Shown: positions 23,719-40,268, counted from the first letter of the stretch. The stretch is DNA of 40,268 bases from Patescibacteria group bacterium (GCA_041891375.1 JASDUA010000002.1:1-40268); one strand, 5' to 3'. Numbers and translations are program-made. The notes: a model not told the origin generated them from the sequence alone.

Positions 23719-23729
23719 CGTCCTGGTTC

Positions 23730-23906
23730 GAGGCAGCGGACCGATAACCCGTTCGCCCGGTTATTGTTGTTAGCGGGAATCACTCCGTTAGTAGTCGAGA
23801 GATTCACGTTGTTCCCGTTCGTCCCGGTAGTAGACGCGGCCCAGTAGTTGCCGTTCGTACCCTGGTTATTGAACGCGGCGGTCGAGTTGTTACGGTTGCC
23901 GGCGAG
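23730..23906 (-). repeat. DGR template repeat (TR), 177 nt
   Basis: Aligns without gaps to 24537-24713 and 32739-32915. Asn-rich when translated (NGVIPANNNNRANG; AAC/AAT codons). Lies between avd and the RT. All about 17 differences from VR1 fall at TR positions that are T on the + strand, which is A on the coding strand. Confidence 0.85.
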
Positions 23907-24009
23907 ACGGAAAGCGGCCGCTTACGGCGGAGGCGTCCGGCTTCCGCTGGGGAGGGAGGACGCCTTCGGATTTCGTACCCCCGGCCTACGGCCGGAGGTG
24001 GGCCGCCAA

Positions 24010-24527: not shown

Positions 24528-26021
24528 CTAATTCTTGAGGCAGCGGACCGATAACCCGAGCGCCCGGGTATTGTGGTTAGCGGGAACCACTCCGTTAGTA
24601 GTCGAGAGAGTCACGTTGCGCCCGTTCGTCCCGGTAGTAGACGCGGCCCAGTAGCCGCCGAGCGTACCCTGGTTATTGAACGCGGCGGCCGAGGTGTTAC
24701 GGTAGCCGGCGAGCGGCAGGCGGAGCGTGGTCATGAACTTGTTGGCCGTGGTTTCCACGTGCCAGGCGGCGTCGCAAAGGGTTACGTCCGGCGATACGGC
24801 CTTGATGGCGTCGCACCACTCCTTCTGCGTCGGGACGTGGTAGCCGGACTGGCAGGGGCCCTGCATCGCGGCCGGGGATCCGAGCGACGAGTAGGTTCCG
24901 ACGGCGGTTGTCGAACCGGTGCCTCACCAGAGGTTGTCGTCCTGGACCGAGAGCCAGTCATACGGCGCGGTGCCTTTCGTTATGAACCGGGTTTCGGAAG
25001 CCGCCGTGGCGGCGGCCAGCGGTCCGGCGACCGTGGTTCCGGTGGTGACGTCCTCGTTCCTTCCCCACTGGTAATAGGCTCCCATATACGCCTTCTGCGC
25101 TGCCGTCGGACCGCCGGCCGCGGTGGCGTCGGTGAGCGCTACCGACTGTCCGGCGTACGCGGTGCTCGCGCCCACGTTGCAGGCCGCCCAATGCTGGTTC
25201 GATCCGGTGAGGTAAATGTCCGGAGCGTCGCAGCCCGGGTACTGGCTCGCCCCGCCTCCGGAAGAGGCCGAGCTTGAGGAAGACGACCCGGAAGTCCCGG
25301 TCGCGCCGCCGTCGACGAGCGCGCCGGTTCCGGTCGGGGCCTTCACGAGGCCGAGGACGGCTCCCGCGGAAACCTGTGCCGCGGTGGGCGCCGGGAAATT
25401 GCCGGAGACGGCGACGAGGCCTGTGGCCGGAGCCGTGCCGGCCACCTGGAAGAAGGAGGCGGAACGGTTCCTTCCGGAGGCGGTCGGGGCGAGCGCGGCG
25501 TCGACGGCTCAGACGGCGAGCGATTTCGAATCGTACGCGGCGAAAGAGTCCGGAAGGAAGGAGCCCAGCGACAGGAACCCGCCCATGGGCGGACGGCGGG
25601 AGAGCCGGAATTTCTCCGGATTGAGCTTGAGCTTCGTCCAATCCGGATTGCCGGCCGAGTAATTCGTGCCGGCCTGGTTCCAATCACCGCCGGTGAGCGT
25701 CACCGGGGAGCCGTCGACGTACGCCACGGCCGCTCCCGTGAGCGCGGCGGCGGCGTCGTGGACGACGTAGTAGCGCGGCGAGTTGTCGGTGACGGCCGAC
25801 TCGGAAGAAATCGCCGTATATACCGACCGGACGTTGGCTTTCACGGCGGCGTCCTTCGCGTCCTGCGAGTAGCCGGAAAGGGCGAGGAAGCCTATCGTTG
25901 CCAGAATCGCGAGGATCGTGATGACGACGATGAGTTCGGCAAGGGTGAATCAGGAAAGGATCGATGCTTTGGCGGCCTTGGCGGGCGGCCTGGAGGCCGG
26001 CGCCTCGCGTTTCGCGTCCAT
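24528..26021 (-). CDS. Type IV pilin-like protein with C-terminal Fib_succ_major (FISUMP)/C-type-lectin-like domain; DGR target 1 (497 aa, three in-frame TGA)
   Basis: Four track pieces share one frame and are joined by TGA at 25950, 25509 and 24924. N-terminus: MDAKRE...KASILS-[TGA]|FTLAELIVVITILAILATIGFLAL (prepilin G|FTLxE motif). Ser/Gly linker. C-terminal motifs: GYHVPTQKEWCDAI, LPLAGYRN, GGYWAASTTG, LSVRCLKN. TAG stop at 24528. Confidence 0.8.
24537..24713 (-). repeat. DGR variable repeat 1 (VR1), at the 3' end of pilin-like target 1
   Basis: Same length as the TR. Mismatches fall only at TR adenines on the coding strand, e.g. TR ATT/AAC/AAC/AAC versus VR1 GTT/CAC/ACC/CTC. The 3' 21 nt (GGGTTATCGGTCCGCTGCCTC) are identical to the TR. 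Confidence 0.85.
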
Positions 26022-26125
26022 GTTCGGAAAAAAACGGGTTAAAAATCCGTGGAACATCCTAGCCGGAAATGCGCGGGATGCAAGGCGGACCCCGCAGGCA
26101 TTCCCCTTTTCACCAGCGGGAACGC

Positions 26126-26620
26126 TTACGCGGCGACCGCCACCGGCGCGGCGCATCCGCTCGGAAGCCTTATTGACGAAGGTCCGTCCGTACCGTTCCT
26201 CACGGCCGGGAACGTCTTCCGGCCCCTTGAGCCCGCGGCGACGTCGCCGACCCAGCGGTAGGCGTTGGCCCTTTGGTCGTAGAACGCGCCGTGGGCGGAG
26301 TGCCGGAATCAGGAAAACGCCCTGCGGAAAAGGACGCGGTCCTCGTCGGACCGACCGGAGAACGCCACTGCGGCGGCTTCGAGCTCGGCGGCTGCCGGAA
26401 GGCGGAGGCCCGCGGACTGCAGTTCCCGGACCGCGGCGGCATAGGTGAAAAACTGCTCGGGTGCTCCGTCGGGAAGCAGGACCTGCCAGACGTCCCCTCG
26501 GGTGTTCGCGAGGATCGGGCGTCCGAACGCGGAGGATCAGGGAACGGCGGTCCATCCGGACGAATCAATCCGGAAAAGGCGGAATCCGGCGAATGCCGGG
26601 TCTGGTTTCGTTTCTGGCAC
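26126..26620 (-). CDS. DUF1566-like small protein (about 164 aa, GTG start uncertain) with two in-frame TGA (26537, 26309)
   Basis: Not in the track because two TGA split it. Sequence ...FRLFRIDSSGWTAVP-[TGA]-SSAFGRPILANTRGDVWQVLLPDGAPEQFFTYAAAVRELQSAGLRLPAAAELEAA...RRAFS-[TGA]-FRHSAHGAFYDQRANAYRWVGDV..., TAA at 26126. Clear paralogue of 17783-18247. The other two minus frames are Arg/Pro-rich. Confidence 0.5.
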
Positions 26621-26698
26621 GTGGGGTCGCGCTTGAAGGGGTAAGGCGTCCTGATGCTATCCGCGGAACCCTTCGGGTCAAGCCTGGCTTGGTACGGG

Positions 26699-28255
26699 CT
26701 AATCGAGGGCCAGCCCGATCGCCCCCACCATTTCACCGAACGACTCCGGAAATTTCCGCGTTACGGCGCCGGCCAGCGTCTTCAGGAAATCGTCGCGCTC
26801 GAGGCCGAGCTCCTTCCCCGCCGCGTACACCTCTTTGTGCTTGCCCGCCTTCGCTCCCGTATCGAGGGCTTCGGCGACCGTATCGGGATCGGAACCCACT
26901 AATGCGGCGAGGTCGTTGGCGATTTCCTTTCCTTTCCGCATGAGCCACGCTTCGGGCCATACGTCGCCCGGAAGGTAGGCCATCCGCGCTTTCATCCAGT
27001 CGTCGAAATCCTCTTCCGGATTCTCGGCCATCTTGCGGGCGTGGCCGACGTTGTCGCCCTCCTTCTTCCTTTGGTCGCCGTCGAAAACCGCCAGAACCGG
27101 ATGGTCCCCGTCCCGCAGGTACGTCGCGGCGAGCTGTCTGGCGAGGCAGTTCGCCGAGCCGATTTCGGTTACGGTGATCCGCGTCCGCTGTTGGGCCGAC
27201 AGCGCGGCGCAGACGAGCGCTTTGGCCACGTCGTCCTCGACCAGGACCTCGAGCTCCTTGCCGGCGACCCCTCCGAGTTTCGAAAAGGCGAACTCCGATG
27301 AGACCGAATCGAGGATCCTCGTCCGACCGTTGACGGTCTCTACGAAGTACCTGGCGTCGCTCGGGAGGCGCTCGAAGATCTCTTTCGAGTGCGTCGTGCA
27401 AATCACTTGGGCATTGAGCTTCAAGCACGCGTCCTTGAGCTTGTCGACGAACCGCCGCTGGGCTTCGGCATGGAGCCCGAGCTCGATCTCGTCGATGACC
27501 AGCAAGGCTCCCTTTCCGCAGTCGTACAGGACGGAAAAGATCTCGAAGAGGGCGTTCTCCCCCGCTCCCATGTTGAAGCCGGAATACACTGTCTCGCCCA
27601 CCTTCACGATGGGAAGGTTGTACTTCGAATATTCGAGGTACCGGAAACTGTCGTACGTCTTTCCGAGGATGGATCCGACGATGTCCTTAACCTCGTCTTC
27701 CCATCCTTTCTGCACCGCGTCCTTGAACGCTTTTGAGTACGACCGCGACTGGCTCCGCTCGGCGTGCGGGACGATCCGGTCGATTCCGAGGAACGCTACG
27801 TTCCGCCGTACCCGGTCCGCGTAGTCGTTCCATTTGCCGCCCCGCTTCTTCGATCGCTTCTGCCAGCCGACGCCCACGCCGTCCGGGAGGGTGTCGCTCT
27901 TCTTCCACTTGTCGTAGGCGATCCCGTACTTGATTTCGATTCCTTGCGGGGACAGTTCCTCCGGATGCTGGACGAAAAAATCCGAGAACGTGTAGTACGT
28001 CGTCTTCCGCTTGGGCAAGCGGTATCCGTCCCTCCTGTTGTGGTAGGCGCAGCATGCGAGGGCGAGAATGGTGGATTTTCCCGCGCCGTTCTTGCCGGCT
28101 ACGGCGACGATCGGGAAGTTGACCGGGAGGTCGAGCCGCGTCAGGCCACGAAGTTCGCCGGTAACGAGGTTGATGTTCCGAAGGAGCGCTTTGGTGTTGT
28201 CGTTGCAGAACCACTCGCGAAGCTTCTTATCGGTCTTTGTCTCGCTGTATTTCAT
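26699..28255 (-). CDS. OLD-like ABC ATPase with C-terminal Toprim/DUF4435-like domain (518 aa)
   Basis: Motifs: Walker A VAGKNGAGKSTIL, Walker B LLVIDEIELGLHAEAQRRF, CTTHS, then ELEVLVEDDVAKALV and LAVFDGDQRKKEG (Toprim-like E...DxD). TAG stop. No internal TGA. Confidence 0.7.
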   Translation of the reverse strand: MKYSETKTDKKLREWFCNDNTKALLRNINLVTGELRGLTRLDLPVNFPIVAVAGKNGAGKSTILALACCAYHNRRDGYRLPKRKTTYYTFSDFFVQHPEELSPQGIEIKYGIAYDKWKKSDTLPDGVGVGWQKRSKKRGGKWNDYADRVRRNVAFLGIDRIVPHAERSQSRSYSKAFKDAVQKGWEDEVKDIVGSILGKTYDSFRYLEYSKYNLPIVKVGETVYSGFNMGAGENALFEIFSVLYDCGKGALLVIDEIELGLHAEAQRRFVDKLKDACLKLNAQVICTTHSKEIFERLPSDARYFVETVNGRTRILDSVSSEFAFSKLGGVAGKELEVLVEDDVAKALVCAALSAQQRTRITVTEIGSANCLARQLAATYLRDGDHPVLAVFDGDQRKKEGDNVGHARKMAENPEEDFDDWMKARMAYLPGDVWPEAWLMRKGKEIANDLAALVGSDPDTVAEALDTGAKAGKHKEVYAAGKELGLERDDFLKTLAGAVTRKFPESFGEMVGAIGLALD

Positions 28256-28449
28256 ACGCTTGAGCGGTTACGTCCGGAATATTCGTTTGATCTTACCAGG
28301 GTTGGGAAAACCGCCTGGACGACTCGGCTCTCGTGGGGAGGAAACGTCGCAGTTCGCCAAATGGTAAGCACGGAACCGACCCCGTCAAGTTTGGCCGTTT
28401 CCGAATCCGCAATCGTCCCGAGAACGTACCTTTTCGATACGTTCCTCAT
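28252..28449 (-). CDS. Possible 65-aa ORF whose TGA overlaps the ATG of the OLD-like gene (ATGA); low confidence
   Basis: Sequence MRNVSKRYVLGTIADSETAKLDGVGSVLTIWRTATFPPHESRVVQAVFPTLVRSNEYSGRNRSSV. Composition looks like protein, but GC3 is only moderate and the region looks intergenic and carries operator-like repeats. Confidence 0.25.
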   Translation of the reverse strand: MRNVSKRYVLGTIADSETAKLDGVGSVLTIWRTATFPPHESRVVQAVFPTLVRSNEYSGRNRSSV

Positions 28450-28455
28450 ACGTTC
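28422..28455. promoter_or_regulatory. Operator-like inverted plus direct repeat upstream of the OLD-like gene
   Basis: GAACGTA (28422-28428), 9 nt, TACGTTC (28438-28444), 4 nt, TACGTTC (28449-28455). Confidence 0.3.
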
Positions 28456-28462
28456 ACCGGTT

Positions 28463-30124
28463 TTATTCCGTACCTTTACCGGGTATCCACTCCGCGCGCT
28501 CCGGCCACTCGACGCCGAACCGGTCGCAGGCCTTCGCGAACGCCGCGAGCACGTCCTCGGCGTGCGCGGCGAACCGAGCGGTTTCGACGACCATGCCCGC
28601 CCGCTTCGCGGCGCGGCCCGAGGCGCGGACTTCGGATTCGAAGGCGTAAGGGAACGCCTCCGCGAGGGCGGCGGCGGACCGCTCCGCCGCTTTCAGGAGT
28701 CCGGCGGGCGGCTTCCGGTTCCTCGTGGCCATGACCTGGACGAGCTCCGGGACGCCCCCTTCCCCGGGCGCCAGTTCGAAGTGCCCGGCCAGTTCTCCGG
28801 ACGGATGGAACGCCGCGAACACCGCCCGTCTTCCGGCCAGGAGCTCCGGCAGGTACCCGGCCAGGCAGTTCGAAGCCTCGTCGGCCTCGGCGATGAGCCG
28901 GCCAGCGGTGCCTATCCGCCTGGCCTCCCACCCTCCCCCGCAGCCGAGGGCGTCGGGGAACGGCGACGGGATCGGGTCTTCGGGAGGCCAGACTTCCCTC
29001 ACGGCCTCCCGGACGGCCGCGGTTTCCTTGCGCGCCCAAGCGCGGCCCGCGGCCGGAAGGTCGGCCGGGTGGTGCCGGCAGAGGGCCCAGAGGACCGCCC
29101 ACGTTCCCGCGCCGAGACGGACCGTTTCCCCGTGGAACGTCCCGGCGAACGTCCTTCCCCCGACGGCGGGGTGCTTCCCCACCTGCTCGGCGAGGTCGGA
29201 AAGCCAGGCCGTCCCGTGCCGGTCCGGAAGCTCGTACGGGCGGCGGCGGAGCGCCTGCCATACGGCCGCCGAGGCTTCCGCGAGCGCCACGCGCCCTTCA
29301 TGGTCGCCGGCGTCGCGAAGGATGCCGGCCGCCCAGCGTGCCGCCTTCAGGAAGCGGCCGAAGTCGGGGGCGCGGGGCCTCCGTTCCGGCGGTACGAGCG
29401 AGAACGCCGCGGCGTAGAACGCGGGGTCGGTCTCGAAGTCCGCCACGGGATACCCACGGGCGCGCGGATGCCAGGCGCCGACGGCCGCGAGCGACCGGAC
29501 GACGTTGGGCTCCGCCCGGAGCTCCCTGCAGAGCGCGGGCAAGAGTTCCGCCCGCGCGTCGATCGCGGCGAGCACGCGTTCCGCCGGTTCCGGAGTGCCG
29601 GCCGCCAGGCCGGCGCACGTCCAAGGCAGGAGCCAAGGGAAGACGGTGACGGCCTGGACCCTCTCCGGGCGCCCGGAGAGCAGGGCGTACTCCCTCCCGG
29701 TCAGCGGGCGCCCGACCGGGAGCTTCAGGAGGTCCCGATCCAGGGCGCCGAGGAACTCTTCGACGGCTCCCGCGACGCGGGCTGCGGCCGGGTCGGTCCC
29801 GTCCGGACCGCAGGCGGCATAGGCGATCCGCAGGGGCTCGAGGATCGGGTCGAAACCCGAGTAGGGTCCGGCGGCGGCCGCCTCCCTGACCGAGGCGCCG
29901 AGGCTCCCGGCGCCGGGTTTCGGACGGTGGCGCCCGTACGACACGGTTTCGTCGGCGGCATGGAAGAGGAAGGAGGACTCCGCGGCCCCGGGCCCGCTCC
30001 ATTCGACCGTAAGCAGCCGGCCTGGAATCCCGACGGCCCGGAGGACGTCCGCGCCCTCGAGGCTGCGGACCAGGCCGGAAACCTTCCCCGAACGGACGGC
30101 GAGGTACTTGCGGCCCGCGTTCAC
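28463..30124 (-). CDS. 553-aa cytoplasmic protein, C-terminus possibly PcfJ-like
   Basis: GTG start at 30124, preceded by GGGAGGGA. The real frame is the C-terminal 553 aa of the track's 854-aa ORF (the N-terminal 300 aa are an Arg-rich shadow of the vWA gene). The stretch EASNCLAGYLPELLAGRRAVFAAFHPSGELAGHFELAPGEGGVPELVQVMATRNRKPP resembles my recollection of the PcfJ-like domain. TAA stop. Confidence 0.55.
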   Translation of the reverse strand: MNAGRKYLAVRSGKVSGLVRSLEGADVLRAVGIPGRLLTVEWSGPGAAESSFLFHAADETVSYGRHRPKPGAGSLGASVREAAAAGPYSGFDPILEPLRIAYAACGPDGTDPAAARVAGAVEEFLGALDRDLLKLPVGRPLTGREYALLSGRPERVQAVTVFPWLLPWTCAGLAAGTPEPAERVLAAIDARAELLPALCRELRAEPNVVRSLAAVGAWHPRARGYPVADFETDPAFYAAAFSLVPPERRPRAPDFGRFLKAARWAAGILRDAGDHEGRVALAEASAAVWQALRRRPYELPDRHGTAWLSDLAEQVGKHPAVGGRTFAGTFHGETVRLGAGTWAVLWALCRHHPADLPAAGRAWARKETAAVREAVREVWPPEDPIPSPFPDALGCGGGWEARRIGTAGRLIAEADEASNCLAGYLPELLAGRRAVFAAFHPSGELAGHFELAPGEGGVPELVQVMATRNRKPPAGLLKAAERSAAALAEAFPYAFESEVRASGRAAKRAGMVVETARFAAHAEDVLAAFAKACDRFGVEWPERAEWIPGKGTE

Positions 30125-30366
30125 GGCGCGTCCCTCCCGTCCCGGTTGATCGTCGCCCGAACCTTCCCGTCCTTGCCCCGGACGAACTCGGAGCCGGGGG
30201 GAAGCCGGAACAGGAACGCGCGCAGGAGTTCGCCGACGTTGGCCGCCACGTCCGCCAGGAGCACGACGCGGCCTCCACGGCGGTTCCTCCATACGGGCGC
30301 CCGCGTCCCCTTCCGGCACCATCCGACCGGGACGAGACCGATCGCGACCAGCAGGATCCTGAACAT
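30121..30366 (-). CDS. 81-aa single-pass membrane protein ending in a TGA that overlaps the next start (GTGA)
   Basis: Sequence MFRILLVAIGLVPVGWCRKGTRAPVWRNRRGGRVVLLADVAANVGELLRAFLFRLPPGSEFVRGKDGKVRATINRDGRDAP. Very high GC3. If TGA=Gly, it would continue for hundreds of codons in a Ser/Pro/Arg-rich off-frame. Confidence 0.55.
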   Translation of the reverse strand: MFRILLVAIGLVPVGWCRKGTRAPVWRNRRGGRVVLLADVAANVGELLRAFLFRLPPGSEFVRGKDGKVRATINRDGRDAP

Positions 30367-30374
30367 GGCGGCCC

Positions 30375-31031
30375 CTACCGGATCCGGACCGGGTAGCGGC
30401 CGTACTGGACGACGGCGGCCCCGGGAGCGGACGAAAAGTAGCGGGTCCAAAAGGCCTCGACCGCCGCGTAGTCCTTCCCGCCCGCGCCGGCGACGTACAC
30501 CTTCGCGCCGGCGAGCGCCGCGGGGGCCGCGAGGTCCTTCTTCCGTCCCGACGCCAGGTCGAAGCGGCCGGTCTCGAGCATGTCCGAAAGGACCACGAGC
30601 GTCTTCCCCGAGTCCGGGGACTGGGAGAACGCCTGCGACGACGCTTCGACGGCGTCGACGATCCTGGTCGCCTTGTCCGGCGACTTCTCCGCGCGCCCGA
30701 GGATCCCGCCGAGGGCGGCCAGGGCGCCCTCTTCGAACTCCTTCCTCCGCTTCCCGTCTGCGAAGCGCCGGCCGGTCGGCGCGGGAGCTTCGGCGTCGAA
30801 GTCGCGGACCCACGAGGCCCGCTCCTTCCCTCCGAGCGCGGCCACCACCAGGCGGTCCCCCGGACGCACGGCCCGGACGACGCCCTCCACGCTTTCCCGG
30901 TACGCGGCCCGTTCTTCCGCGCCCACGCTCGACGACGCGTCGACGAGCACCACGTACGTGCCGGCCCACGCCGGCGAGGCCAGCGCGAGGCACGCGGCGG
31001 CCGCGCAGGCGGCCATTTCCATTGCATCCAT
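30375..31031 (-). CDS. Secreted von Willebrand factor A (vWA)-like protein, 218 aa
   Basis: Signal peptide MDAMEMAACAAAACLALASPAWAG, MIDAS-like VLVDASSSV (DxSxS), LVVLSDM. SD AGGAG upstream. TAG stop. Confidence 0.7.
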   Translation of the reverse strand: MDAMEMAACAAAACLALASPAWAGTYVVLVDASSSVGAEERAAYRESVEGVVRAVRPGDRLVVAALGGKERASWVRDFDAEAPAPTGRRFADGKRRKEFEEGALAALGGILGRAEKSPDKATRIVDAVEASSQAFSQSPDSGKTLVVLSDMLETGRFDLASGRKKDLAAPAALAGAKVYVAGAGGKDYAAVEAFWTRYFSSAPGAAVVQYGRYPVRIR

Positions 31032-31077
31032 TTCCTTCGGCTCCTATCCGATTACCGTCTTTTCACAATTCGCTATC

Positions 31078-31097
31078 CGTACGTTTCACGTACGTTT
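31078..31097. promoter_or_regulatory. Tandem CGTACGTTT repeat (11-nt period) in the spacer before the vWA gene
   Basis: CGTACGTTT at 31078-31086 and 31089-31097. On the coding strand this reads AAACGTACGtgAAACGTACG, about 50-65 nt upstream of the vWA ATG. Confidence 0.3.
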
Positions 31098-32165: not shown

Positions 32166-32364
32166 TCGCGACCTCCCTTGCCTTCCGTACGCCCGTCTCC
32201 GGCACGGCCGCCGGCGCCGCAGCTTCCGCGGTTCCGGCGTTCCCGTACGTCGCGACCGCGACTCCGTGCCCGCGTGACGGATACCCGTTCCGCCCGTCGC
32301 GCGCCCCGGTCCAACCGGGGTCCGCCGACAGGACCCTCGCCAAGATTTCCCACAGTCCGCCCAT
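32158..32364 (-). CDS. 68-aa protein, first gene of the operon; its TGA stop lies inside the start of the next gene (ATGGCTGA)
   Basis: Sequence MGGLWEILARVLSADPGWTGARDGRNGYPSRGHGVAVATYGNAGTAEAAAPAAVPETGVRKAREVANG. Strong SD GGAAGGAG 7 nt upstream. High GC3. Confidence 0.5.
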   Translation of the reverse strand: MGGLWEILARVLSADPGWTGARDGRNGYPSRGHGVAVATYGNAGTAEAAAPAAVPETGVRKAREVANG

Positions 32365-32594
32365 TTTCGACTCCTTCCCGAACGCTCTCCGAAAAGCCGG
32401 CCCCCTCTCGGGAGTCCCGGCGGCGGAACCGTGGATTTTCGGCCCGCTTGGTTTGAACACTATTCGGACTAAAACCGGAAGTCAACCGAAAGCTATACGG
32501 TTTTTATACGTTAAGCGGTTTTTTGCCGTACCTTTTACGACCGCTAACGATGCGCTTTTGCCCCGGACAAATTTCCCTACGGGATCCGGCCTGC

Positions 32595-32638
32595 GCGGCT
32601 TCCGCGCCCGGCGGACGGGCCGCCTCCGCGGAAGCCGC
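32595..32638. other. 12-bp perfect GC-rich hairpin about 95 nt 3' of the pilin-like target 2 stop
   Basis: GCGGCTTCCGCG (32595-32606), 20-nt loop, CGCGGAAGCCGC (32627-32638). No T-run on either side. Confidence 0.45.
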
Positions 32639-32729
32639 TGCGGTCCTCCCATGGGTGGCGCAGGGCATAAAAAACCGCTCCTCCCGATGATGGGAAGGGC
32701 CGGTTTTCGAGCAAGCATCGGAGCGCTTC

Positions 32730-34178
32730 TTAGTCCCTGAGGCAGCGGACCGATAACCCGTGCGCCCGGTTAGTGTATTTGGCGGGAGACACTCCGTTAG
32801 TAGTCGAGAGATTCACGTAGTACCCGTACGTCCCGGTAGTAGACGCGGCCCAGTAGGAGCCGACCGAACCCTGGAGAGTGAATGCGGCGGTCGAGTTGTT
32901 ACGGTAGCCGGCGAGCGGCAGGCGGAGCGTGGTCATGAATTTGTTGGCGACGGCTTCGGCGTGCCAGTTGGCGTCGCATACCATCGCCGCCCCGCCGTTC
33001 TGCGTCGGGGATACCGCGACGATCGCGTCGCACCATTCCTTGGCCGTGGGCACGTGGTATCCGGCCGCGCAGGGTCCCTGCATCGCGGCCGGGGATCCGA
33101 GCGAGGAGTAGGTTCCGGCGGAAACCGTGGAACCGGTGCCTCCCCAGAGGTTGTCGTCTTGGACGGAGAGCCAGTCGTACGGAGCGGTTCCGTTGGTGAT
33201 GAACCGGGTTTCGGAAGCGGCGGTCGCGGTCGCGAGGGGTCCGGCGACCGTGGCTCCGGTCGTCACGTCGAGGTTCCGTCCCCACTGGTAGTACGCGCCC
33301 ATGTAGGCTTTCTGCGCGGCGGTCGGGCCGCCGGCGGCGGTCGCGTCGGCGAGGGTTACGGACTGTCCGGCGTACGCGGTGCTCGCGCCCACGTTGCAGG
33401 CGGCCCACTTCTGGCCGTTGGAGAGGACGACGTCCGGCGTGTCACAGCCGGGGTAGGCGGCGAACCCCGGGGAAGCGGAGCCGTCGACGAGCGCTCACGT
33501 CAGCGCGCCGGGGAACCCGACGAGTCCGGGGATTCCGCCACTTCCGGCCGGGAAATTACCGGAGACGGTGACGAGACCGGTGGCCGGGGCGGTTCCGGCG
33601 ACCTGAAAGAAGGAGGCCGAACGGTTCCTTCCGGAAGCGGTCGGGGCGAGCGCCGCGTCGACGGCTCAGACGGCGACCGATTTCGGATCGTACGCGGCGA
33701 AAGAGTCCGGAAGGAAGGAGCCCAGCGACAGGAACCCGCCCATGGGCGGACGGCGGGAGAGCCGGAATTTCTCCGGATTGAGCTTGAGCTTCGTCCAATC
33801 CGGATTGCCGGCCGAGTAATTCGTGCCGGCCTGGTTCCAATCACCGCCGGTGAGCGTCACCGGGGAGCCGTCGACGTACGCCACGGCCGCTCCCGTGAGC
33901 GCGGCGGCGGCGTCGTGGACGACGTAGTAGCGCGGCGAGTTGTCGGTGACGGCCGACTCGGAAGAAATCGCCGTATATACCGACCGGACGTTGGCTTTCA
34001 CGGCGGCGTCCTTCGCGTCCTGCGAGTAGCCGGAAAGGGCGAGGAAGCCTATCGTTGCCAGAATCGCGAGGATCGTGATGACGACGATGAGTTCGGCAAG
34101 GGTGAATCAGGAAAGGATCGATGCTTTGGCGGCCTTGGCGGGCGGCCTGGAGGCCGGCGCCTCGCGTTTCGCGTCCAT
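32730..34178 (-). CDS. Type IV pilin-like protein with C-terminal Fib_succ_major/C-type-lectin-like domain; DGR target 2 (482 aa, three in-frame TGA)
   Basis: Pieces 34107-34712 (tail), 33666-34001 and 32730-33392 share one frame. TGA at 34107 (G|FTLAE), 33666 and 33495. The N-terminal about 165 codons are identical to target 1; the C-terminal two thirds diverge (AAGYHVPTAKEWCDAI, LPLAGYRN, GSYWAASTTG, LSVRCLRD). TAA stop. Confidence 0.8.
32739..32915 (-). repeat. DGR variable repeat 2 (VR2), at the 3' end of pilin-like target 2
   Basis: Gap-free 177-nt alignment to the TR. Most mismatches fall at TR adenines on the coding strand, but about 5 do not (e.g. ATT>TCT, GCT>GCC, AAC>AAA). Confidence 0.75.
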
Positions 34179-34282
34179 GTTCGGAAAAAAACGGGTTAAA
34201 AATCCGTGGAACATCCTAGCCGGAAATGCGCGGGATGCAAGGCGGACCCCGCAGGCATTCCCCTTTTCACCAGCGGGAACGC

Positions 34283-34777
34283 TTACGCGGCGACCGCCAC
34301 CGGCGCGGCGCATCCGCTCGGAAGCCTTATTGACGAAGGTCCGTCCGTACCGTTCCTCACGGCCGGGAACGTCTTCCGGCCCCTTGAGCCCGCGGCGACG
34401 TCGCCGACCCAGCGGTAGGCGTTGGCCCTTTGGTCGTAGAACGCGCCGTGGGCGGAGTGCCGGAATCAGGAAAACGCCCTGCGGAAAAGGACGCGGTCCT
34501 CGTCGGACCGACCGGAGAACGCCACTGCGGCGGCTTCGAGCTCGGCGGCTGCCGGAAGGCGGAGGCCCGCGGACTGCAGTTCCCGGACCGCGGCGGCATA
34601 GGTGAAAAACTGCTCGGGTGCTCCGTCGGGAAGCAGGACCTGCCAGACGTCCCCTCGGGTGTTCGCGAGGATCGGGCGTCCGAACGCGGAGGATCAGGGA
34701 ACGGCGGTCCATCCGGACGAATCAATCCGGAAAAGGCGGAATCCGGCGAATGCCGGGTCTGGTTTCGTTTCTGGCAC
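34283..34777 (-). CDS. Second copy of the DUF1566-like small protein (two in-frame TGA at 34694, 34466)
   Basis: Offset of 8157 from 26126-26620, inside the identical repeat. Confidence 0.5.
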
Positions 34778-34855
34778 GTGGGGTCGCGCTTGAAGGGGTA
34801 AGGCGTCCTGATGCTATCCGCGGAACCCTTCGGGTCAAGCCTGGCTTGGTACGGG

Positions 34856-36412
34856 CTAATCGAGGGCCAGCCCGATCGCCCCCACCATTTCACCGAACGA
34901 CTCCGGAAATTTCCGCGTTACGGCGCCGGCCAGCGTCTTCAGGAAATCGTCGCGCTCGAGGCCGAGCTCCTTCCCCGCCGCGTACACCTCTTTGTGCTTG
35001 CCCGCCTTCGCTCCCGTATCGAGGGCTTCGGCGACCGTATCGGGATCGGAACCCACTAATGCGGCGAGGTCGTTGGCGATTTCCTTTCCTTTCCGCATGA
35101 GCCACGCTTCGGGCCATACGTCGCCCGGAAGGTAGGCCATCCGCGCTTTCATCCAGTCGTCGAAATCCTCTTCCGGATTCTCGGCCATCTTGCGGGCGTG
35201 GCCGACGTTGTCGCCCTCCTTCTTCCTTTGGTCGCCGTCGAAAACCGCCAGAACCGGATGGTCCCCGTCCCGCAGGTACGTCGCGGCGAGCTGTCTGGCG
35301 AGGCAGTTCGCCGAGCCGATTTCGGTTACGGTGATCCGCGTCCGCTGTTGGGCCGACAGCGCGGCGCAGACGAGCGCTTTGGCCACGTCGTCCTCGACCA
35401 GGACCTCGAGCTCCTTGCCGGCGACCCCTCCGAGTTTCGAAAAGGCGAACTCCGATGAGACCGAATCGAGGATCCTCGTCCGACCGTTGACGGTCTCTAC
35501 GAAGTACCTGGCGTCGCTCGGGAGGCGCTCGAAGATCTCTTTCGAGTGCGTCGTGCAAATCACTTGGGCATTGAGCTTCAAGCACGCGTCCTTGAGCTTG
35601 TCGACGAACCGCCGCTGGGCTTCGGCATGGAGCCCGAGCTCGATCTCGTCGATGACCAGCAAGGCTCCCTTTCCGCAGTCGTACAGGACGGAAAAGATCT
35701 CGAAGAGGGCGTTCTCCCCCGCTCCCATGTTGAAGCCGGAATACACTGTCTCGCCCACCTTCACGATGGGAAGGTTGTACTTCGAATATTCGAGGTACCG
35801 GAAACTGTCGTACGTCTTTCCGAGGATGGATCCGACGATGTCCTTAACCTCGTCTTCCCATCCTTTCTGCACCGCGTCCTTGAACGCTTTTGAGTACGAC
35901 CGCGACTGGCTCCGCTCGGCGTGCGGGACGATCCGGTCGATTCCGAGGAACGCTACGTTCCGCCGTACCCGGTCCGCGTAGTCGTTCCATTTGCCGCCCC
36001 GCTTCTTCGATCGCTTCTGCCAGCCGACGCCCACGCCGTCCGGGAGGGTGTCGCTCTTCTTCCACTTGTCGTAGGCGATCCCGTACTTGATTTCGATTCC
36101 TTGCGGGGACAGTTCCTCCGGATGCTGGACGAAAAAATCCGAGAACGTGTAGTACGTCGTCTTCCGCTTGGGCAAGCGGTATCCGTCCCTCCTGTTGTGG
36201 TAGGCGCAGCATGCGAGGGCGAGAATGGTGGATTTTCCCGCGCCGTTCTTGCCGGCTACGGCGACGATCGGGAAGTTGACCGGGAGGTCGAGCCGCGTCA
36301 GGCCACGAAGTTCGCCGGTAACGAGGTTGATGTTCCGAAGGAGCGCTTTGGTGTTGTCGTTGCAGAACCACTCGCGAAGCTTCTTATCGGTCTTTGTCTC
36401 GCTGTATTTCAT
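34856..36412 (-). CDS. Second copy of the OLD-like ABC ATPase-Toprim protein
   Basis: The 518-aa translation is identical to 26699-28255. Confidence 0.7.
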   Translation of the reverse strand: MKYSETKTDKKLREWFCNDNTKALLRNINLVTGELRGLTRLDLPVNFPIVAVAGKNGAGKSTILALACCAYHNRRDGYRLPKRKTTYYTFSDFFVQHPEELSPQGIEIKYGIAYDKWKKSDTLPDGVGVGWQKRSKKRGGKWNDYADRVRRNVAFLGIDRIVPHAERSQSRSYSKAFKDAVQKGWEDEVKDIVGSILGKTYDSFRYLEYSKYNLPIVKVGETVYSGFNMGAGENALFEIFSVLYDCGKGALLVIDEIELGLHAEAQRRFVDKLKDACLKLNAQVICTTHSKEIFERLPSDARYFVETVNGRTRILDSVSSEFAFSKLGGVAGKELEVLVEDDVAKALVCAALSAQQRTRITVTEIGSANCLARQLAATYLRDGDHPVLAVFDGDQRKKEGDNVGHARKMAENPEEDFDDWMKARMAYLPGDVWPEAWLMRKGKEIANDLAALVGSDPDTVAEALDTGAKAGKHKEVYAAGKELGLERDDFLKTLAGAVTRKFPESFGEMVGAIGLALD

Positions 36413-36619
36413 ACGCTTGAGCGGTTACGTCCGGAATATTCGTTTGATCTTACCAGGGTTGGGAAAACCGCCTGGACGACTCGGCTCTCGTGGGGAGGAA
36501 ACGTCGCAGTTCGCCAAATGGTAAGCACGGAACCGACCCCGTCAAGTTTGGCCGTTTCCGAATCCGCAATCGTCCCGAGAACGTACCTTTTCGATACGTT
36601 CCTCATACGTTCACCGGTT

Positions 36620-38281
36620 TTATTCCGTACCTTTACCGGGTATCCACTCCGCGCGCTCCGGCCACTCGACGCCGAACCGGTCGCAGGCCTTCGCGAACGC
36701 CGCGAGCACGTCCTCGGCGTGCGCGGCGAACCGAGCGGTTTCGACGACCATGCCCGCCCGCTTCGCGGCGCGGCCCGAGGCGCGGACTTCGGATTCGAAG
36801 GCGTAAGGGAACGCCTCCGCGAGGGCGGCGGCGGACCGCTCCGCCGCTTTCAGGAGTCCGGCGGGCGGCTTCCGGTTCCTCGTGGCCATGACCTGGACGA
36901 GCTCCGGGACGCCCCCTTCCCCGGGCGCCAGTTCGAAGTGCCCGGCCAGTTCTCCGGACGGATGGAACGCCGCGAACACCGCCCGTCTTCCGGCCAGGAG
37001 CTCCGGCAGGTACCCGGCCAGGCAGTTCGAAGCCTCGTCGGCCTCGGCGATGAGCCGGCCAGCGGTGCCTATCCGCCTGGCCTCCCACCCTCCCCCGCAG
37101 CCGAGGGCGTCGGGGAACGGCGACGGGATCGGGTCTTCGGGAGGCCAGACTTCCCTCACGGCCTCCCGGACGGCCGCGGTTTCCTTGCGCGCCCAAGCGC
37201 GGCCCGCGGCCGGAAGGTCGGCCGGGTGGTGCCGGCAGAGGGCCCAGAGGACCGCCCACGTTCCCGCGCCGAGACGGACCGTTTCCCCGTGGAACGTCCC
37301 GGCGAACGTCCTTCCCCCGACGGCGGGGTGCTTCCCCACCTGCTCGGCGAGGTCGGAAAGCCAGGCCGTCCCGTGCCGGTCCGGAAGCTCGTACGGGCGG
37401 CGGCGGAGCGCCTGCCATACGGCCGCCGAGGCTTCCGCGAGCGCCACGCGCCCTTCATGGTCGCCGGCGTCGCGAAGGATGCCGGCCGCCCAGCGTGCCG
37501 CCTTCAGGAAGCGGCCGAAGTCGGGGGCGCGGGGCCTCCGTTCCGGCGGTACGAGCGAGAACGCCGCGGCGTAGAACGCGGGGTCGGTCTCGAAGTCCGC
37601 CACGGGATACCCACGGGCGCGCGGATGCCAGGCGCCGACGGCCGCGAGCGACCGGACGACGTTGGGCTCCGCCCGGAGCTCCCTGCAGAGCGCGGGCAAG
37701 AGTTCCGCCCGCGCGTCGATCGCGGCGAGCACGCGTTCCGCCGGTTCCGGAGTGCCGGCCGCCAGGCCGGCGCACGTCCAAGGCAGGAGCCAAGGGAAGA
37801 CGGTGACGGCCTGGACCCTCTCCGGGCGCCCGGAGAGCAGGGCGTACTCCCTCCCGGTCAGCGGGCGCCCGACCGGGAGCTTCAGGAGGTCCCGATCCAG
37901 GGCGCCGAGGAACTCTTCGACGGCTCCCGCGACGCGGGCTGCGGCCGGGTCGGTCCCGTCCGGACCGCAGGCGGCATAGGCGATCCGCAGGGGCTCGAGG
38001 ATCGGGTCGAAACCCGAGTAGGGTCCGGCGGCGGCCGCCTCCCTGACCGAGGCGCCGAGGCTCCCGGCGCCGGGTTTCGGACGGTGGCGCCCGTACGACA
38101 CGGTTTCGTCGGCGGCATGGAAGAGGAAGGAGGACTCCGCGGCCCCGGGCCCGCTCCATTCGACCGTAAGCAGCCGGCCTGGAATCCCGACGGCCCGGAG
38201 GACGTCCGCGCCCTCGAGGCTGCGGACCAGGCCGGAAACCTTCCCCGAACGGACGGCGAGGTACTTGCGGCCCGCGTTCAC
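36620..38281 (-). CDS. Second copy of the 553-aa possible PcfJ-like protein
   Basis: Translation identical to copy 1 (offset 8157). Confidence 0.55.
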   Translation of the reverse strand: MNAGRKYLAVRSGKVSGLVRSLEGADVLRAVGIPGRLLTVEWSGPGAAESSFLFHAADETVSYGRHRPKPGAGSLGASVREAAAAGPYSGFDPILEPLRIAYAACGPDGTDPAAARVAGAVEEFLGALDRDLLKLPVGRPLTGREYALLSGRPERVQAVTVFPWLLPWTCAGLAAGTPEPAERVLAAIDARAELLPALCRELRAEPNVVRSLAAVGAWHPRARGYPVADFETDPAFYAAAFSLVPPERRPRAPDFGRFLKAARWAAGILRDAGDHEGRVALAEASAAVWQALRRRPYELPDRHGTAWLSDLAEQVGKHPAVGGRTFAGTFHGETVRLGAGTWAVLWALCRHHPADLPAAGRAWARKETAAVREAVREVWPPEDPIPSPFPDALGCGGGWEARRIGTAGRLIAEADEASNCLAGYLPELLAGRRAVFAAFHPSGELAGHFELAPGEGGVPELVQVMATRNRKPPAGLLKAAERSAAALAEAFPYAFESEVRASGRAAKRAGMVVETARFAAHAEDVLAAFAKACDRFGVEWPERAEWIPGKGTE

Positions 38282-38523
38282 GGCGCGTCCCTCCCGTCCC
38301 GGTTGATCGTCGCCCGAACCTTCCCGTCCTTGCCCCGGACGAACTCGGAGCCGGGGGGAAGCCGGAACAGGAACGCGCGCAGGAGTTCGCCGACGTTGGC
38401 CGCCACGTCCGCCAGGAGCACGACGCGGCCTCCACGGCGGTTCCTCCATACGGGCGCCCGCGTCCCCTTCCGGCACCATCCGACCGGGACGAGACCGATC
38501 GCGACCAGCAGGATCCTGAACAT
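38278..38523 (-). CDS. Second copy of the 81-aa TM protein (TGA/GTG overlap)
   Basis: Identical to copy 1 (offset 8157). Confidence 0.55.
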   Translation of the reverse strand: MFRILLVAIGLVPVGWCRKGTRAPVWRNRRGGRVVLLADVAANVGELLRAFLFRLPPGSEFVRGKDGKVRATINRDGRDAP

Positions 38524-38531
38524 GGCGGCCC

Positions 38532-39188
38532 CTACCGGATCCGGACCGGGTAGCGGCCGTACTGGACGACGGCGGCCCCGGGAGCGGACGAAAAGTAGCG
38601 GGTCCAAAAGGCCTCGACCGCCGCGTAGTCCTTCCCGCCCGCGCCGGCGACGTACACCTTCGCGCCGGCGAGCGCCGCGGGGGCCGCGAGGTCCTTCTTC
38701 CGTCCCGACGCCAGGTCGAAGCGGCCGGTCTCGAGCATGTCCGAAAGGACCACGAGCGTCTTCCCCGAGTCCGGGGACTGGGAGAACGCCTGCGACGACG
38801 CTTCGACGGCGTCGACGATCCTGGTCGCCTTGTCCGGCGACTTCTCCGCGCGCCCGAGGATCCCGCCGAGGGCGGCCAGGGCGCCCTCTTCGAACTCCTT
38901 CCTCCGCTTCCCGTCTGCGAAGCGCCGGCCGGTCGGCGCGGGAGCTTCGGCGTCGAAGTCGCGGACCCACGAGGCCCGCTCCTTCCCTCCGAGCGCGGCC
39001 ACCACCAGGCGGTCCCCCGGACGCACGGCCCGGACGACGCCCTCCACGCTTTCCCGGTACGCGGCCCGTTCTTCCGCGCCCACGCTCGACGACGCGTCGA
39101 CGAGCACCACGTACGTGCCGGCCCACGCCGGCGAGGCCAGCGCGAGGCACGCGGCGGCCGCGCAGGCGGCCATTTCCATTGCATCCAT
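38532..39188 (-). CDS. Second copy of the secreted vWA-like protein
   Basis: The 218-aa translation is identical to 30375-31031. Confidence 0.7.
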   Translation of the reverse strand: MDAMEMAACAAAACLALASPAWAGTYVVLVDASSSVGAEERAAYRESVEGVVRAVRPGDRLVVAALGGKERASWVRDFDAEAPAPTGRRFADGKRRKEFEEGALAALGGILGRAEKSPDKATRIVDAVEASSQAFSQSPDSGKTLVVLSDMLETGRFDLASGRKKDLAAPAALAGAKVYVAGAGGKDYAAVEAFWTRYFSSAPGAAVVQYGRYPVRIR

Positions 39189-39242
39189 TTCCTTCGGCTC
39201 CTATCCGATTACCGTCTTTTCACAATTCGCTATCCGTACGTT

Positions 39243-40268
39243 TCACGTACGTTTTCCGTCCGCATTCCAATCCCTCCCGATCTCCCCGACGGCCCTCCGG
39301 ATATCGCCGGCAGGAGGGTCCGGCGGCGGATCGAGCGGCAGGGGTTCGAAGGCTTCCTCCCCCACCGCGGAGAGCATGTAGTCCGGCGGCAGGCAGCCGG
39401 GCGGGCGGTTGGCGAAGTTGTGGTCCCGGTAGGCGGCGACCATCCCGAGGACGCGGTGGACCGTTGCCGAAGCTTCGTCCCGCGCTTTCGCCCAGGCTTC
39501 CGCCCGACGGGAAGCCAACGCGGCGCGCTTCTTCCAGAGCCGCTCCCGCTCGTCCCGGAGCCGGTCGCACCGCGCGGCGAGCCTCGAGGCCTCGGGATCG
39601 GGATCGGCATTCCATGCGGCGAAAGCCGCCGCCGCCAGGTAGCCGAAGCACTGGACGGCGAGGAACGCCGCCGAATGCCCCACGAGCTCCCCCGCCCCGT
39701 CGGCCGCGAGCTGCACTTCCCGAATGGAGGCGAACCCCCAGGCGAAAGCCGCGACCCCGACGTTCGCGAAGGCGACGGCCCAGCCCGGCAAGCCGCCGGG
39801 ACGGCCGGCTCCCCTCTGCCTGGCCCAAGTGCCGGTCGCCTTCGCGACGGCGAAGAGCGACGCCGCGAGGAAAAACGAGTACCAGAGCTTCTCGTTCAGC
39901 AGGAACCGGACGGCCGAGGCGGCGAAGTCGCCGAATCCCCCCTCCCCCGCCGGTTCCGTCGGGACCGGGCCGGCCATCCCGAAGTAGTCGAGCAACCCGT
40001 ACGCGAGGGCCCATTCGCCGCAGACCGCGACCGCTGCGAACGCCGCGAAGGCCCATCCCGGCAACGGCTTGCGGTACCGGCGTCCGCCGCATTCCCGCAG
40101 GAACTCGGCCTCCGTCCGCACGAGTTCGTCCGAGGTTTCGCGGAGGGACAGGTCGAGCCGGTTAATCTCGGCCCGGTCCCGCTTGGCCTCCGCGTTCGCC
40201 TTCGAGGCGAGTTCGAAGCGCTCCCGGTTGCCCGGGGCGACGAGCCGGGCGGCGAAGGGCTCGCGGAC
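39243..40268 (-). CDS. Second copy of the coiled-coil membrane protein; 5' end runs off the window
   Basis: Identical to 31086-32111. The frame is open to the window edge (the expected start would be near 40322). Confidence 0.65.
   Translation of the reverse strand, partial: VREPFAARLVAPGNRERFELASKANAEAKRDRAEINRLDLSLRETSDELVRTEAEFLRECGGRRYRKPLPGWAFAAFAAVAVCGEWALAYGLLDYFGMAGPVPTEPAGEGGFGDFAASAVRFLLNEKLWYSFFLAASLFAVAKATGTWARQRGAGRPGGLPGWAVAFANVGVAAFAWGFASIREVQLAADGAGELVGHSAAFLAVQCFGYLAAAAFAAWNADPDPEASRLAARCDRLRDERERLWKKRAALASRRAEAWAKARDEASATVHRVLGMVAAYRDHNFANRPPGCLPPDYMLSAVGEEAFEPLPLDPPPDPPAGDIRRAVGEIGRDWNADGKRT

Follow-up and report, generated by a model that had tools for sequence, protein, structure and literature searches.

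A perfect 6.6-kb repeat beside a code-25 diversity-generating retroelement with pilin-like targets is probably a false duplication of a single-copy cargo module

The 40,268-nt stretch of DNA analysed here (the window; Patescibacteria group bacterium, GCA_041891375.1 JASDUA010000002.1:1-40268) carries a Gracilibacteria-type diversity-generating retroelement (DGR) translated with genetic code 25 (TGA = Gly), a code assignment made after PMC11452946. Its parts are as follows:

22507-23670, minus strand: DGR reverse transcriptase (RT), 387 aa in code 25 with two in-frame TGA codons; RVT_1 1.6e-14; motif IGNLTSQ
23730-23907, minus strand: template repeat (TR), 46 A in 178 nt
23986-24411, minus strand: bAvd accessory protein (PF22296, 2e-14)
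24528-26021, minus strand: target 1, 'pilinA'; prepilin N-terminus G|FTLAE (G = TGA), Ser/Gly linker and C-terminal Fib_succ_major domain
24537-24713, minus strand: VR1, 177 nt; 15 substitutions relative to the TR, 15/15 at TR adenines
32730-34178, minus strand: target 2, 'pilinB', as assembled; shown as a distinct locus only for its 3' part, 32730 to ~33401
32739-32915, minus strand: VR2, 177 nt; 20 substitutions relative to the TR, 16/20 at adenines and four elsewhere

The RT becomes a single ORF in code 25; its translation contains 'PIGNLTSQ', and the TR ends 60 nt upstream of its start. Its three top-ranked matches are from Candidatus Gracilibacteria (56-58% identity); among the first five matches these three alone carry Gracilibacteria names, the other two being without an organism name. 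The motif [I/L]GxxxSQ is a hallmark of DGR RTs, and here an RVT_1 RT with this motif lies beside the TR, together with an Avd-type gene, TR/VR differences at TR adenines and a putative IMH-like 3' boundary, as judged from the last 22 nt, CGGGTTATCGGTCCGCTGCCTC, which are identical in TR, VR1 and VR2. Each VR stops 9 nt short of the stop codon. The window's strain is present in only two public runs, X1 (~9x) and X2 (~5x), in which the contigs covering VR1 and VR2 match the window exactly (Logan contigs drop rare variants). With TGA read as Gly, the target N-terminus is recognised as a prepilin by TIGR02532 (23.8 bits; cut-off 16.3) and PF07963 (2.2e-4), the sequence running ...ASILS, then G (TGA), then FTLAELIVVITILAIL, which fits a class III signal peptide (G|FxxxE) with a hydrophobic helix after it. 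In the proposed model, RT, bAvd and TR would drive adenine-specific mutagenic retrohoming into the two 177-nt VRs; the VRs would code for the tip of the lectin-like Fib_succ_major domain that these type IV pilin-like proteins carry.

Further signs of recoding are a TGA in one paralogue where the other has GGA (DDNLW*GTG versus DDNLWGGTG), the TGA at the invariant -1 glycine of the prepilin site, and a gene with seven TGA codons, for which 6/6 aligned TGA are conserved in the orthologue of a relative (L006, see below), with one TGA<->GGG exchange, the seventh lying outside the alignment. No tRNA genes were found within the window. The Gabija, type III R-M system, DrmD-like helicase, PDC-S06 and HEC-04 genes on the element are all without internal TGA. 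We considered a chimeric contig, part code-25 genome and part standard-code plasmid, and rejected it, because k=31 contigs of even depth run through both code-25 and TGA-free genes (X1 13277-17719 and a 20-kb contig in the relative X4); the in-frame TGAs are, moreover, conserved in relatives. The GC content of the element is 65%, although its host reads TGA as glycine.

Between the two VR ends lies one 6.6-kb module, here called S', comprising the gene for a HEC-04-like ATPase together with four or five ORFs of unassigned function. It is also found in two relatives, L001 (SRR19749607_8685, a Rep_3/ParA/relaxase plasmid-like contig) and L006 (CAYQRN010000153.1). The module and the junction that follows it comprise:

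26126-26620, minus strand: 164-aa ORF (g26126), readable in code 25 only; two in-frame TGA, conserved in L001 and L006
26699-28255, minus strand: 518-aa AAA_15/AAA_21 ATPase, HEC-04-like candidate defence gene
28463-30124, minus strand: 553-aa protein
30121-30366, minus strand: 81-aa ORF, called on L001; coordinates inferred by synteny
30375-31031, minus strand: 218-aa protein; N-terminal hydrophobic stretch ending AWAG, a putative signal peptide by eye
31086-32165, minus strand: 359-aa 'geneA'; hydrophobic stretches, putative membrane protein by eye
32112-32729, no strand: junction from S' to the target 2 stop codon

An earlier note on this DNA had labelled several of these genes. Its 'OLD-like ATPase' is reasonable (AAA_15/AAA_21, PADLOC HEC-04, ATPase-Toprim_I-B), its 'DUF1566-like' gene at 26126-26620 has no Pfam or NCBIfam match, the Fib_succ_major lectin-like domain sitting instead in the pilin target, and its 'vWA operon' has as sole basis one sub-threshold VWA match (E=0.08) in the 218-aa protein. 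The 553-aa, 359-aa and 164-aa proteins matched no family in Pfam, NCBIfam or PADLOC. In the standard code geneA stops at a TGA, and code 25 adds 14 codons; its second copy is cut by the window end, which falls 54 nt inside it. Within the junction, 32166-32677 has its homologue in the intergenic region between Rep_3 and geneA in plasmid-like relatives, and a terminator-like hairpin lies at 32680-32698. An exact-protein look-up of the window ATPase returned no record, and the representative of its 100% cluster pointed to L001; a geneA scan of JGI metagenomes found no relative, and PLSDB held no match to S' and only ParA fragments of the L001 backbone. Three ATPase relatives at ~82% identity (P0005, P0006 and P0009) lie in unrelated defence islands and were set aside as uninformative on S'.

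The second half of the window is dominated by a direct repeat:

25530-32111, no strand: repeat copy 1, S' together with 492 nt from the 5' end of the pilin target; supported as a single-copy path
33687-40268, no strand: repeat copy 2, reaching the window end; no extra depth

The repeat of period 8157 bp that the earlier note described is borne out in full: the copies are identical over 6,582 nt (0 mismatches, offset 8,157), the ORF lists recur at +8157, the final mismatch at this offset is position 25529, and at 40268 it is the window edge alone that stops the match. Such identity is beyond the reach of chance. To the left of 25530/33687 the pilin-like genes, as also described, are diverged (~77-84% identical, with a 45-nt net length difference and 177-nt VRs): 24528-25529 (1,002 nt) and 32730-33686 (957 nt) share 77% identity with gaps counted, 80-86% in most gap-free 100-nt blocks and 89% beside the boundary. 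Nothing within the sequence itself speaks against a very recent duplication. Taken at face value, the repeat would suggest a DGR target whose surroundings evolve in concert or undergo cassette replacement, and five or six genes would be counted twice.

The depth comparison that the earlier note had called for was made on the Logan contigs of X1 and X2, and the repeated block is present at 1x, not 2x. All depth values given here are mean k-mer depths of Logan contigs, as distinct from raw-read coverage. In X1, the single-copy baseline over window 1-20000 is 8.5-9.15 and the S' contigs have depths of 10.1, 6.17, ~4.3, 7.85 and 3.5 (length-weighted mean ~7.2), where two copies would give ~17.6; in X2, the baseline is ~4.8 and S' lies at 5.0-5.5. 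The block is likewise 1x in ~95%-identical relatives examined at 875x and 1,400x, where it is contiguous with RT-TR-Avd-pilinA on one path: X8 has 875 over the left flank, 877 and 701 over S' and 873 over the junction, and X9 has 1417 over the left flank and 1040-1568 over S'. None of X1, X2, X8 and X9 thus shows ~2x depth relative to the single-copy flanks. A single 20-kb contig in X4 runs from window 21000 to 25502 and continues directly into S', and L001 and L006 hold one S' each.

The same data show that the second VR end is no phantom. One X1 contig, 32111-32926, spans the joint with 0 mismatches at 8.7x, which places VR2 upstream of S' without showing S' double, and X2 contig 31660-32412 further covers the junction. 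The VR-bearing 3' ends of pilinA and pilinB (C'A with VR1 and C'B with VR2) reach 7.2x and 11.7x in X1, and both ends and the junction at 32112-32729 are each at ~1x, so that the cargo module does have a second DGR target immediately upstream. This also disposes of a simple strain bubble, the form of artefact that the earlier note had in mind, which we rejected on the ~1x depth of both 3' ends and the junction in both runs. Support is missing just for the repeated passage over 33687-40268 and perhaps for the 5' portion of 'pilinB', which is either the same as that of target 1 or mis-joined.

Several features of the contig bear the marks of a short-read assembly graph. X2 contains Nextera adapter, which marks this run, if not both, as a short-read library, and the longest Logan contig in the repeat region is <2 kb for X1 and X2. 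Window 1-55 is a multi-copy k-mer from which other contigs branch off at 49-55. The window end (equivalent to 32111) coincides with an X1 contig break in a polymorphic, thinly covered spot, 4 nt past a SNP cluster (32077, 32107) at which X1 and X2 have other alleles. Exact 41- and 43-mers are shared inside the pilin genes, at Logan contig breaks, the 43-mer overlapping the TR-homologous VR edge and hence being expected. The diverged pilin middle parts are sample-specific (33361-33943 in X1 only, 25330-25786 in X2 only, 25185-25329 in neither), which suggests that alleles were joined up in a co-assembly. Window alleles at 19072, 32077 and 32107 and the segment 25185-25329 are missing from both X1 and X2, which may differ from the runs behind the window assembly.

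Probably, then, the perfect 6.6-kb repeat, although present in the contig, reflects a block that really occurs once per element, its second copy arising from loop traversal; copy 2 most likely stems from the assembler passing twice along one single-copy graph edge. In the proposed model, block 25530-32111 would be the pilin 5' end plus S', and the contig would be a short-read de Bruijn assembly, of assembler type and k-mer size that we infer, of a low-coverage, strain-mixed metagenome. Two pilin-like 3' ends would converge on one 5' end in its graph, and with C'B and VR2 directly upstream of S' the loop would be closed; the assembler would have followed S'-junction-pilinB-S' and halted at the next tangle, leaving a perfect repeat up to the contig end. 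The real order, in gene direction, would be [5' part]-C'B(VR2)-terminator-junction-S'-pilinA(VR1)-Avd-TR-RT. Among the three readings that the earlier note had offered, an assembly artefact linked to DGR-target variants is thus the one favoured by the evidence, and all populations examined speak against recent tandem duplication and against gene conversion. The flow at the shared 41-mer in X1 is unbalanced, with inputs of 7.2 and 11.7 and only 10.5 seen leaving, so the artefact model needs an unseen second 5' branch; a search of all loci compared here with the loose-end sequences of X1, X2 and X8 gave no match to a pilinB upstream region.

A real, very recent tandem duplication of the 8.16-kb unit (pilin target plus S') in the source population, giving a DGR with two complete targets, is unlikely. 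It would call for either a subsequent exchange of two thirds of one target, on its 3' side, or gene conversion that evened out the 6.6 kb upstream. The contig itself shows two copies, DGRs with several targets are well known, and the joints of such an array occur in reads: S'-junction-VR2 through the X1 joint contig, the passage from the middle of pilinB to the common 5' end through X1 contig 33361-33943, and that from the middle of pilinA to the same end through X2 contig 25330-25786. However, S' is single-copy in X1 and X2 and in relatives at 875-1400x, the arrangement is absent from all relatives examined, and short reads cannot cross a perfect 6.6-kb repeat, so that the contig adds no independent support for duplication. 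Target 3' ends that are ~84% identical and four non-adenine differences between VR2 and TR are, moreover, hard to reconcile with 0 differences in 6.6 kb without a special mechanism. Some of the X1 depths around the loop would also suit a physical 8,157-bp circle (S', junction and pilinB), excised or autonomous and at ~1:1 with the larger element, in which case pilinA would have a different 5' end and upstream region and the false join would be L-pilinA-S' rather than the second S'. These depths agree (C'B 11.7, middle B plus 5' end 10.5, 5' end 9.95, left S' 10.1, junction 8.7), S' shows no way out on its right-hand side, X1 has no pilinA-specific middle part, and X1 and X2 contain, as a loose end at 26022, a pilin gene that agrees over its first 48 nt but has other upstream sequence. 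Such a circle is nevertheless decidedly improbable: L-DGR-pilinA-S' lies on one contig in X4 and X8, in X2 the shared 5' end is joined to a middle part of pilinA type, S' in L006 adjoins the same integrase region as in the window, the circle would be without a replication gene (in L001 Rep_3 is not part of S'), and the mean S' depth of 7.2 is no higher than baseline.

The pilS loci of Neisseria offer a further comparison, in which C'B would be a 5'-truncated silent cassette sharing one expression site, made up of 5' end and middle part, with C'A through recombination at short identity islands, the DGR diversifying both. Two VR-bearing 3' ends at 1x with one ~1x 5'/middle path in each of X1 and X2 point this way, as do exact islands of 41 and 43 nt in otherwise ~84%-identical sequence; yet the 43-nt island is the one expected from TR homology, the absence of a second middle branch weighs little because contig placement over a 161-nt stretch around the shared 41-mer would miss a branch that has only those 41 nt in common with the window, and no recombinase or switching reads were found for the locus, so that we regard this reading as highly improbable. 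That there is either one pilin 5' end or expression site per genome, with C'A and C'B swapped in pilE/pilS fashion at short identity islands and one DGR hypermutating both, or else an 8.2-kb unit truly duplicated and kept identical by gene conversion, seems to us improbable; if the first of these were true, two layers of adhesin variation would exist on a 65%-GC, code-25 mobile element. On the favoured reading, that of loop traversal over a single-copy block, the repeat calls for a label of probable false duplication, and any comparative or copy-number work should start from the contig cut at ~33.4-33.7 kb.

In short-read de Bruijn metagenomes, path-extension assemblers (e.g. metaSPAdes) can traverse a repeat edge as a loop and so create a false duplication. 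The window repeat resembles such cases in being perfect and far longer than any read or insert, in ending with the contig, in being bounded by branch points, and in having single-copy k-mer depth; unlike in a pure strain bubble, the loop-closing edge (junction plus VR2) is real sequence at 1x. L001 and L006 carry S' (window 26059-32677) at 98% identity, g26126 included, but, unlike the window, have no pilinB upstream of the junction, and L006 is without the whole DGR and PDC-S06 segment (window 19816-26085). The window's Gracilibacteria-type DGR, with its two pilin-like targets, is set around a module that is also carried by Rep_3/relaxase plasmid-like contigs; taken with the 65% GC of an element whose host reads TGA as glycine, and with its TGA-free defence genes, this offers a concrete case in which to study how standard-code defence genes enter a recoded lineage. 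Among known DGRs, multi-target examples include those of Legionella and Treponema and the type V pilus adhesins of Bacteroides. As in multi-target DGRs (bioRxiv 10.1101/2024.11.15.621889), a single TR/RT in the window serves more than one VR, and the VR is C-terminal in surface adhesin-like targets; unlike in those systems, the targets are type IV pilin-like, the host uses code 25, and the VRs flank a 6.6-kb defence- or cargo-like module. Counterparts are also found on the Gracilibacteria MAG contigs DNKW01000080.1 (GCA_003488655.1) and JAQTON010000003.1 (GCA_028713325.1), which share with the window the order target-bAvd-RT, a target with an N_methyl pilin-like N-terminus and Fib_succ_major, RTs that are 57-58% identical, and code 25. 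Their loci are chromosomal, with 32-47% GC and a single adjacent target, whereas that of the window has 65% GC, lies on a defence island or plasmid-like element, and has a second VR-bearing end 8.2 kb off.

The contig ends in a direct repeat, in which positions 25530-32111 and 33687-40268 are identical over 6,582 nt (0 mismatches, offset 8,157) when the window is compared with itself; the first mismatch lies at 25529, and on the right the repeat is bounded solely by the window end. Every ORF in the ORF listing of the window recurs at +8157, and the earlier note, which had described a base-identical period of 8157 reaching the last base and an exact duplication of all ORFs, was right in all its numbers. 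Its description of pilin genes that diverge left of the boundary also holds: the gene parts 24528-25529 (1,002 nt) and 32730-33686 (957 nt) differ by a net 45 nt; in alignment they are 77% identical with gaps counted and 80-86% identical over most blocks free of gaps. The repeat search also ties 23719-23969 to both copies. We regard the repeat as a correct reading of the contig that most likely arose by over-expansion during assembly and not by biological duplication. The DGR parts on which the argument draws are:

23670..22507, minus strand, DGR RT
23907..23730, minus strand, TR
24411..23986, minus strand, bAvd
26021..24528, minus strand, target 1, which holds VR1 (24713..24537)
32915..32739, minus strand, second VR (VR2), at the end of 'target 2'

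The repeated block corresponds largely to a cargo module, here called S', whose genes are:

26059-32677, the module S', encoding minus-strand genes
within S', minus strand, 359-aa protein with hydrophobic stretches, by eye a putative membrane protein
within S', minus strand, 218-aa protein with an N-terminal hydrophobic stretch, by eye a putative signal peptide; VWA at E=0.08 only
within S', minus strand, 81-aa ORF
within S', minus strand, 553-aa protein
within S', minus strand, 518-aa AAA_15/AAA_21 ATPase (PADLOC HEC-04, 1.5e-45)
within S', minus strand, 164-aa ORF, open in code 25 only

Two gene labels proposed earlier do not carry over, as 'DUF1566-like' finds no support at family thresholds and 'vWA operon' falls below them, the sole VWA match being that of the 218-aa protein.

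The same strain is found in only two public runs, X1 and X2, which are seawater metagenomes from one study; X2 contains the Nextera adapter as a loose end, so at least X2 is a short-read library. Depths are mean k-mer depths of Logan contigs and not raw coverage, and coverage is low in both runs. The X1 baseline, taken from long contigs of single-copy sequence across window 1-20000, is 8.5-9.15, and in the same run the S' contigs stand at 10.1, 6.17, ~4.3, 7.85 and 3.5 (mean ~7.2), the junction between S' and the target 2 stop codon at 8.7, the VR2-bearing end at 11.7 and the VR1-bearing end at 7.2. In X2, S' has 5.0-5.5 against a baseline of ~4.8. Two copies of S' would be expected to give ~17.6 (X1) and ~9.6 (X2), and the observed depths are well short of this in both; read as a choice between 2x and 1x for the repeated block, the Logan contigs of X1 and X2 thus return 1x, counter to a real duplication. 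Two root metagenomes contain relatives of ~95% identity in very deep coverage, with k-mer depths of 875 (left flank), 877 (target 1), 877 and 701 (S') and 873 (junction) in X8, and of 1417 (left flank), 1040-1568 (S') and 1378 (junction) in X9. In X4, another run with such a relative, one 20-kb contig starts at window 21000 and passes via RT, TR, Avd and target 1 straight into S'. Together, these depths and the X4 contig indicate that S' is single-copy wherever measurable and that DGR-target 1-S' is a conserved adjacency. Past 32674 the relatives part from the window, and the VR2-bearing end is therefore strain-specific.

How a single-copy module could come to be written twice is suggested by the layout of the targets. 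Exact 43- and 41-mers are common to both target genes, and Logan contigs break precisely there. Two pilin 3' ends would meet at one 5' end, with one 3' end upstream of S', which would create a graph loop running from S' via the junction and the 3' end of target 2 (C'B) to the 5' end and back into S'. An assembler that works by path extension and has to use each edge would output S'-loop-S' and halt at the next tangle; the assembler itself is inferred. Because a 6.6-kb repeat exceeds what any short read or insert can confirm, the contig does not count as separate evidence of two copies. Both contig ends bear assembly marks. At its start the window falls in a k-mer present in several copies, the GajA P-loop, with a first X1 depth bin of ~40, and other X1 contigs fork off at positions 49-55, as is typical when a contig opens on a vertex of a de Bruijn graph with k ~55. 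It ends at the equivalent of 32111, an X1 contig break (gap 32096-32110, next contig from 32111), just before which other alleles are present (32077T and 32107A in X2; 32077T at 3.5x in X1). Which 'diverged' middle part occurs depends on the sample: the copy-2 type is in X1 only and the distal copy-1 type in X2 only. Segment 25185-25329 is in neither run, and the window alleles at 19055 and 19072 are absent from both. These end, branch and allele patterns point to a co-assembly or a strain mixture. X1 and X2 are possibly not the runs behind the window; we consider it improbable that the source population, if not sampled by them, has a real duplication of its own.

The VR1-bearing end, the VR2-bearing end and the junction are each at ~1x in both runs, so that a further DGR target, complete or fragmentary, does exist immediately upstream of S'. 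The suggestion of an assembly artefact linked to strain variants is hence supported by the 1x depth, but not in its plain strain-variant form, as the second VR-bearing locus and the junction exist. With only one S', a 5' part outside the window is required for one 3' end or the other. We prefer the linear order ?-C'B-junction-S'-target 1-Avd-TR-RT, because relatives keep target 1-S' and the plasmid-like relative L006 (CAYQRN010000153.1) keeps S'-integrase synteny. An 8,157-bp circle of S', junction and target 2 would also fit, the X1 depths around the loop being mutually consistent and no exit from it being seen in X1. X1 flow at the 41-mer is unbalanced (7.2 + 11.7 in, 10.5 seen out), and an undisplayed branch must exist, contigs that share ~41 nt alone falling outside the display. 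C'B could also be a 5'-truncated silent cassette. An additional pilin paralogue in X1 and X2 has the same first 48 nt and different upstream sequence; a link between it and C'B was looked for and not found.

The element is related to plasmid-like contigs. Part of L001, the 16.4-kb Logan contig SRR19749607_8685, is 98% identical to S', which it carries together with Rep_3, ParA, NikA/MobC and a relaxase; its backbone (1-5500) has no relative in PLSDB. L006 has S' at 98% identity adjoining the same integrase region as window 17480-19815, and window 19816-26085 (PDC-S06, RT, TR, Avd, target 1) is inserted relative to it. L006 has code-25 genes, yet the MAG that contains it bears the label Planctomycetia, probably a binning error. 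Junction 32166-32677 is the plasmid intergenic region upstream of geneA, followed by ~30-50 nt with a terminator-like hairpin before the target 2 stop codon. The tyrosine recombinase at 18267-19706 is interrupted by TAG at 19071-19073 in the window; position 19072 is G (TCG, Ser) in X1 and X2 contigs and the L006 orthologue is intact. The TAG represents a minority variant, a pseudogene variant or a mistake in the assembly. At 12116-13724 two ORFs are adjacent, one SRAP-like (SOS-response-associated peptidase) and one ArdC-like (antirestriction/ssDNA-binding metalloprotease); both are putative, recognised from translations alone, and their pairing would be in keeping with an element that is conjugative or mobilisable. 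Elements ~95% identical over 21000-32674 (DGR, target and S') reach 875x in X8 and 1,400x in X9, with partial matches also in runs from sludge, soil, sediment and groundwater; the family occurs widely and is at times highly abundant.

Several minus-strand genes are broken by in-frame TGA and repaired when TGA is read as glycine; genes with TGA of this kind lie at 15314-16843, 22507-23670, 24528-26021, 26126-26620 and 19071-19706. The RT becomes a single 387-aa ORF, and the target gene gains the invariant Gly at position -1 of the prepilin cleavage site (...SILS-G|FTLAELIVV) and passes TIGR02532. One copy-1 TGA aligns to GGA in copy 2 (DDNLW*GTG vs DDNLWGGTG), and the 90%-identical L006 orthologue of gene 15314-16843 keeps six TGA and has one TGA in place of a GGG. 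On these translations, the window genes are read in genetic code 25, the code used by Gracilibacteria and Absconditabacteria (PMC11452946). The defence genes are set apart:

23-11907, 19774-22473 and 26699-28255, defence island: GajA/GajB (Gabija), type III REase + MTase, DrmD-like SNF2 helicase, PDC-S06, HEC-04-like ATPase

The large defence genes have 0 internal TGA in ~4,300 codons, neighbouring genes up to 7, and several TGA-ending defence genes meet TAA or TAG within 1-24 codons; they have the appearance of genes brought into a recoded host from donors that use the standard code. The repeat itself is of low discovery value, and the neighbouring biology merits separate study: a 65% GC, code-25 element, kin to plasmid-like contigs, combines a two-target pilin DGR with a defence stack (Gabija, a type III R-M system, DrmD-like helicase, PDC-S06 and HEC-04) in which none has an internal TGA.

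TR and VR1 differ at 15 positions, 15/15 at TR adenines, and TR and VR2 at 20, 16/20 at adenines. The four non-adenine differences of VR2 are G>A, two T>C and C>A, against none in VR1. It is possible that VR2 is an older target or one of lower activity, or that it was copied from a slightly different TR. At 25740-26022 (= 33897-34179), further X1/X2 pilin paralogues share the N-terminal coding stretch or just the first 48 nt, with C-terminal or upstream sequences that differ from the window. X1 contig depths at 25900-25963 sum to about 58, and with these paralogues this indicates that the host has a type IV pilin-like gene family with near-identical 5' ends. The window has 65% GC against 32-47% in those Gracilibacteria MAG contigs whose RTs are closest. 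Either the lineage is a high-GC one that uses code 25, or the window is a high-GC mobile element from a host that does. The top three RT matches are Candidatus Gracilibacteria at 56-58% identity, the sole Gracilibacteria-named entries among the first five, and the two fetched contigs (RTs 57-58% identical) share the cassette of the window, which has in order an N_methyl + Fib_succ_major target, bAvd and RT.
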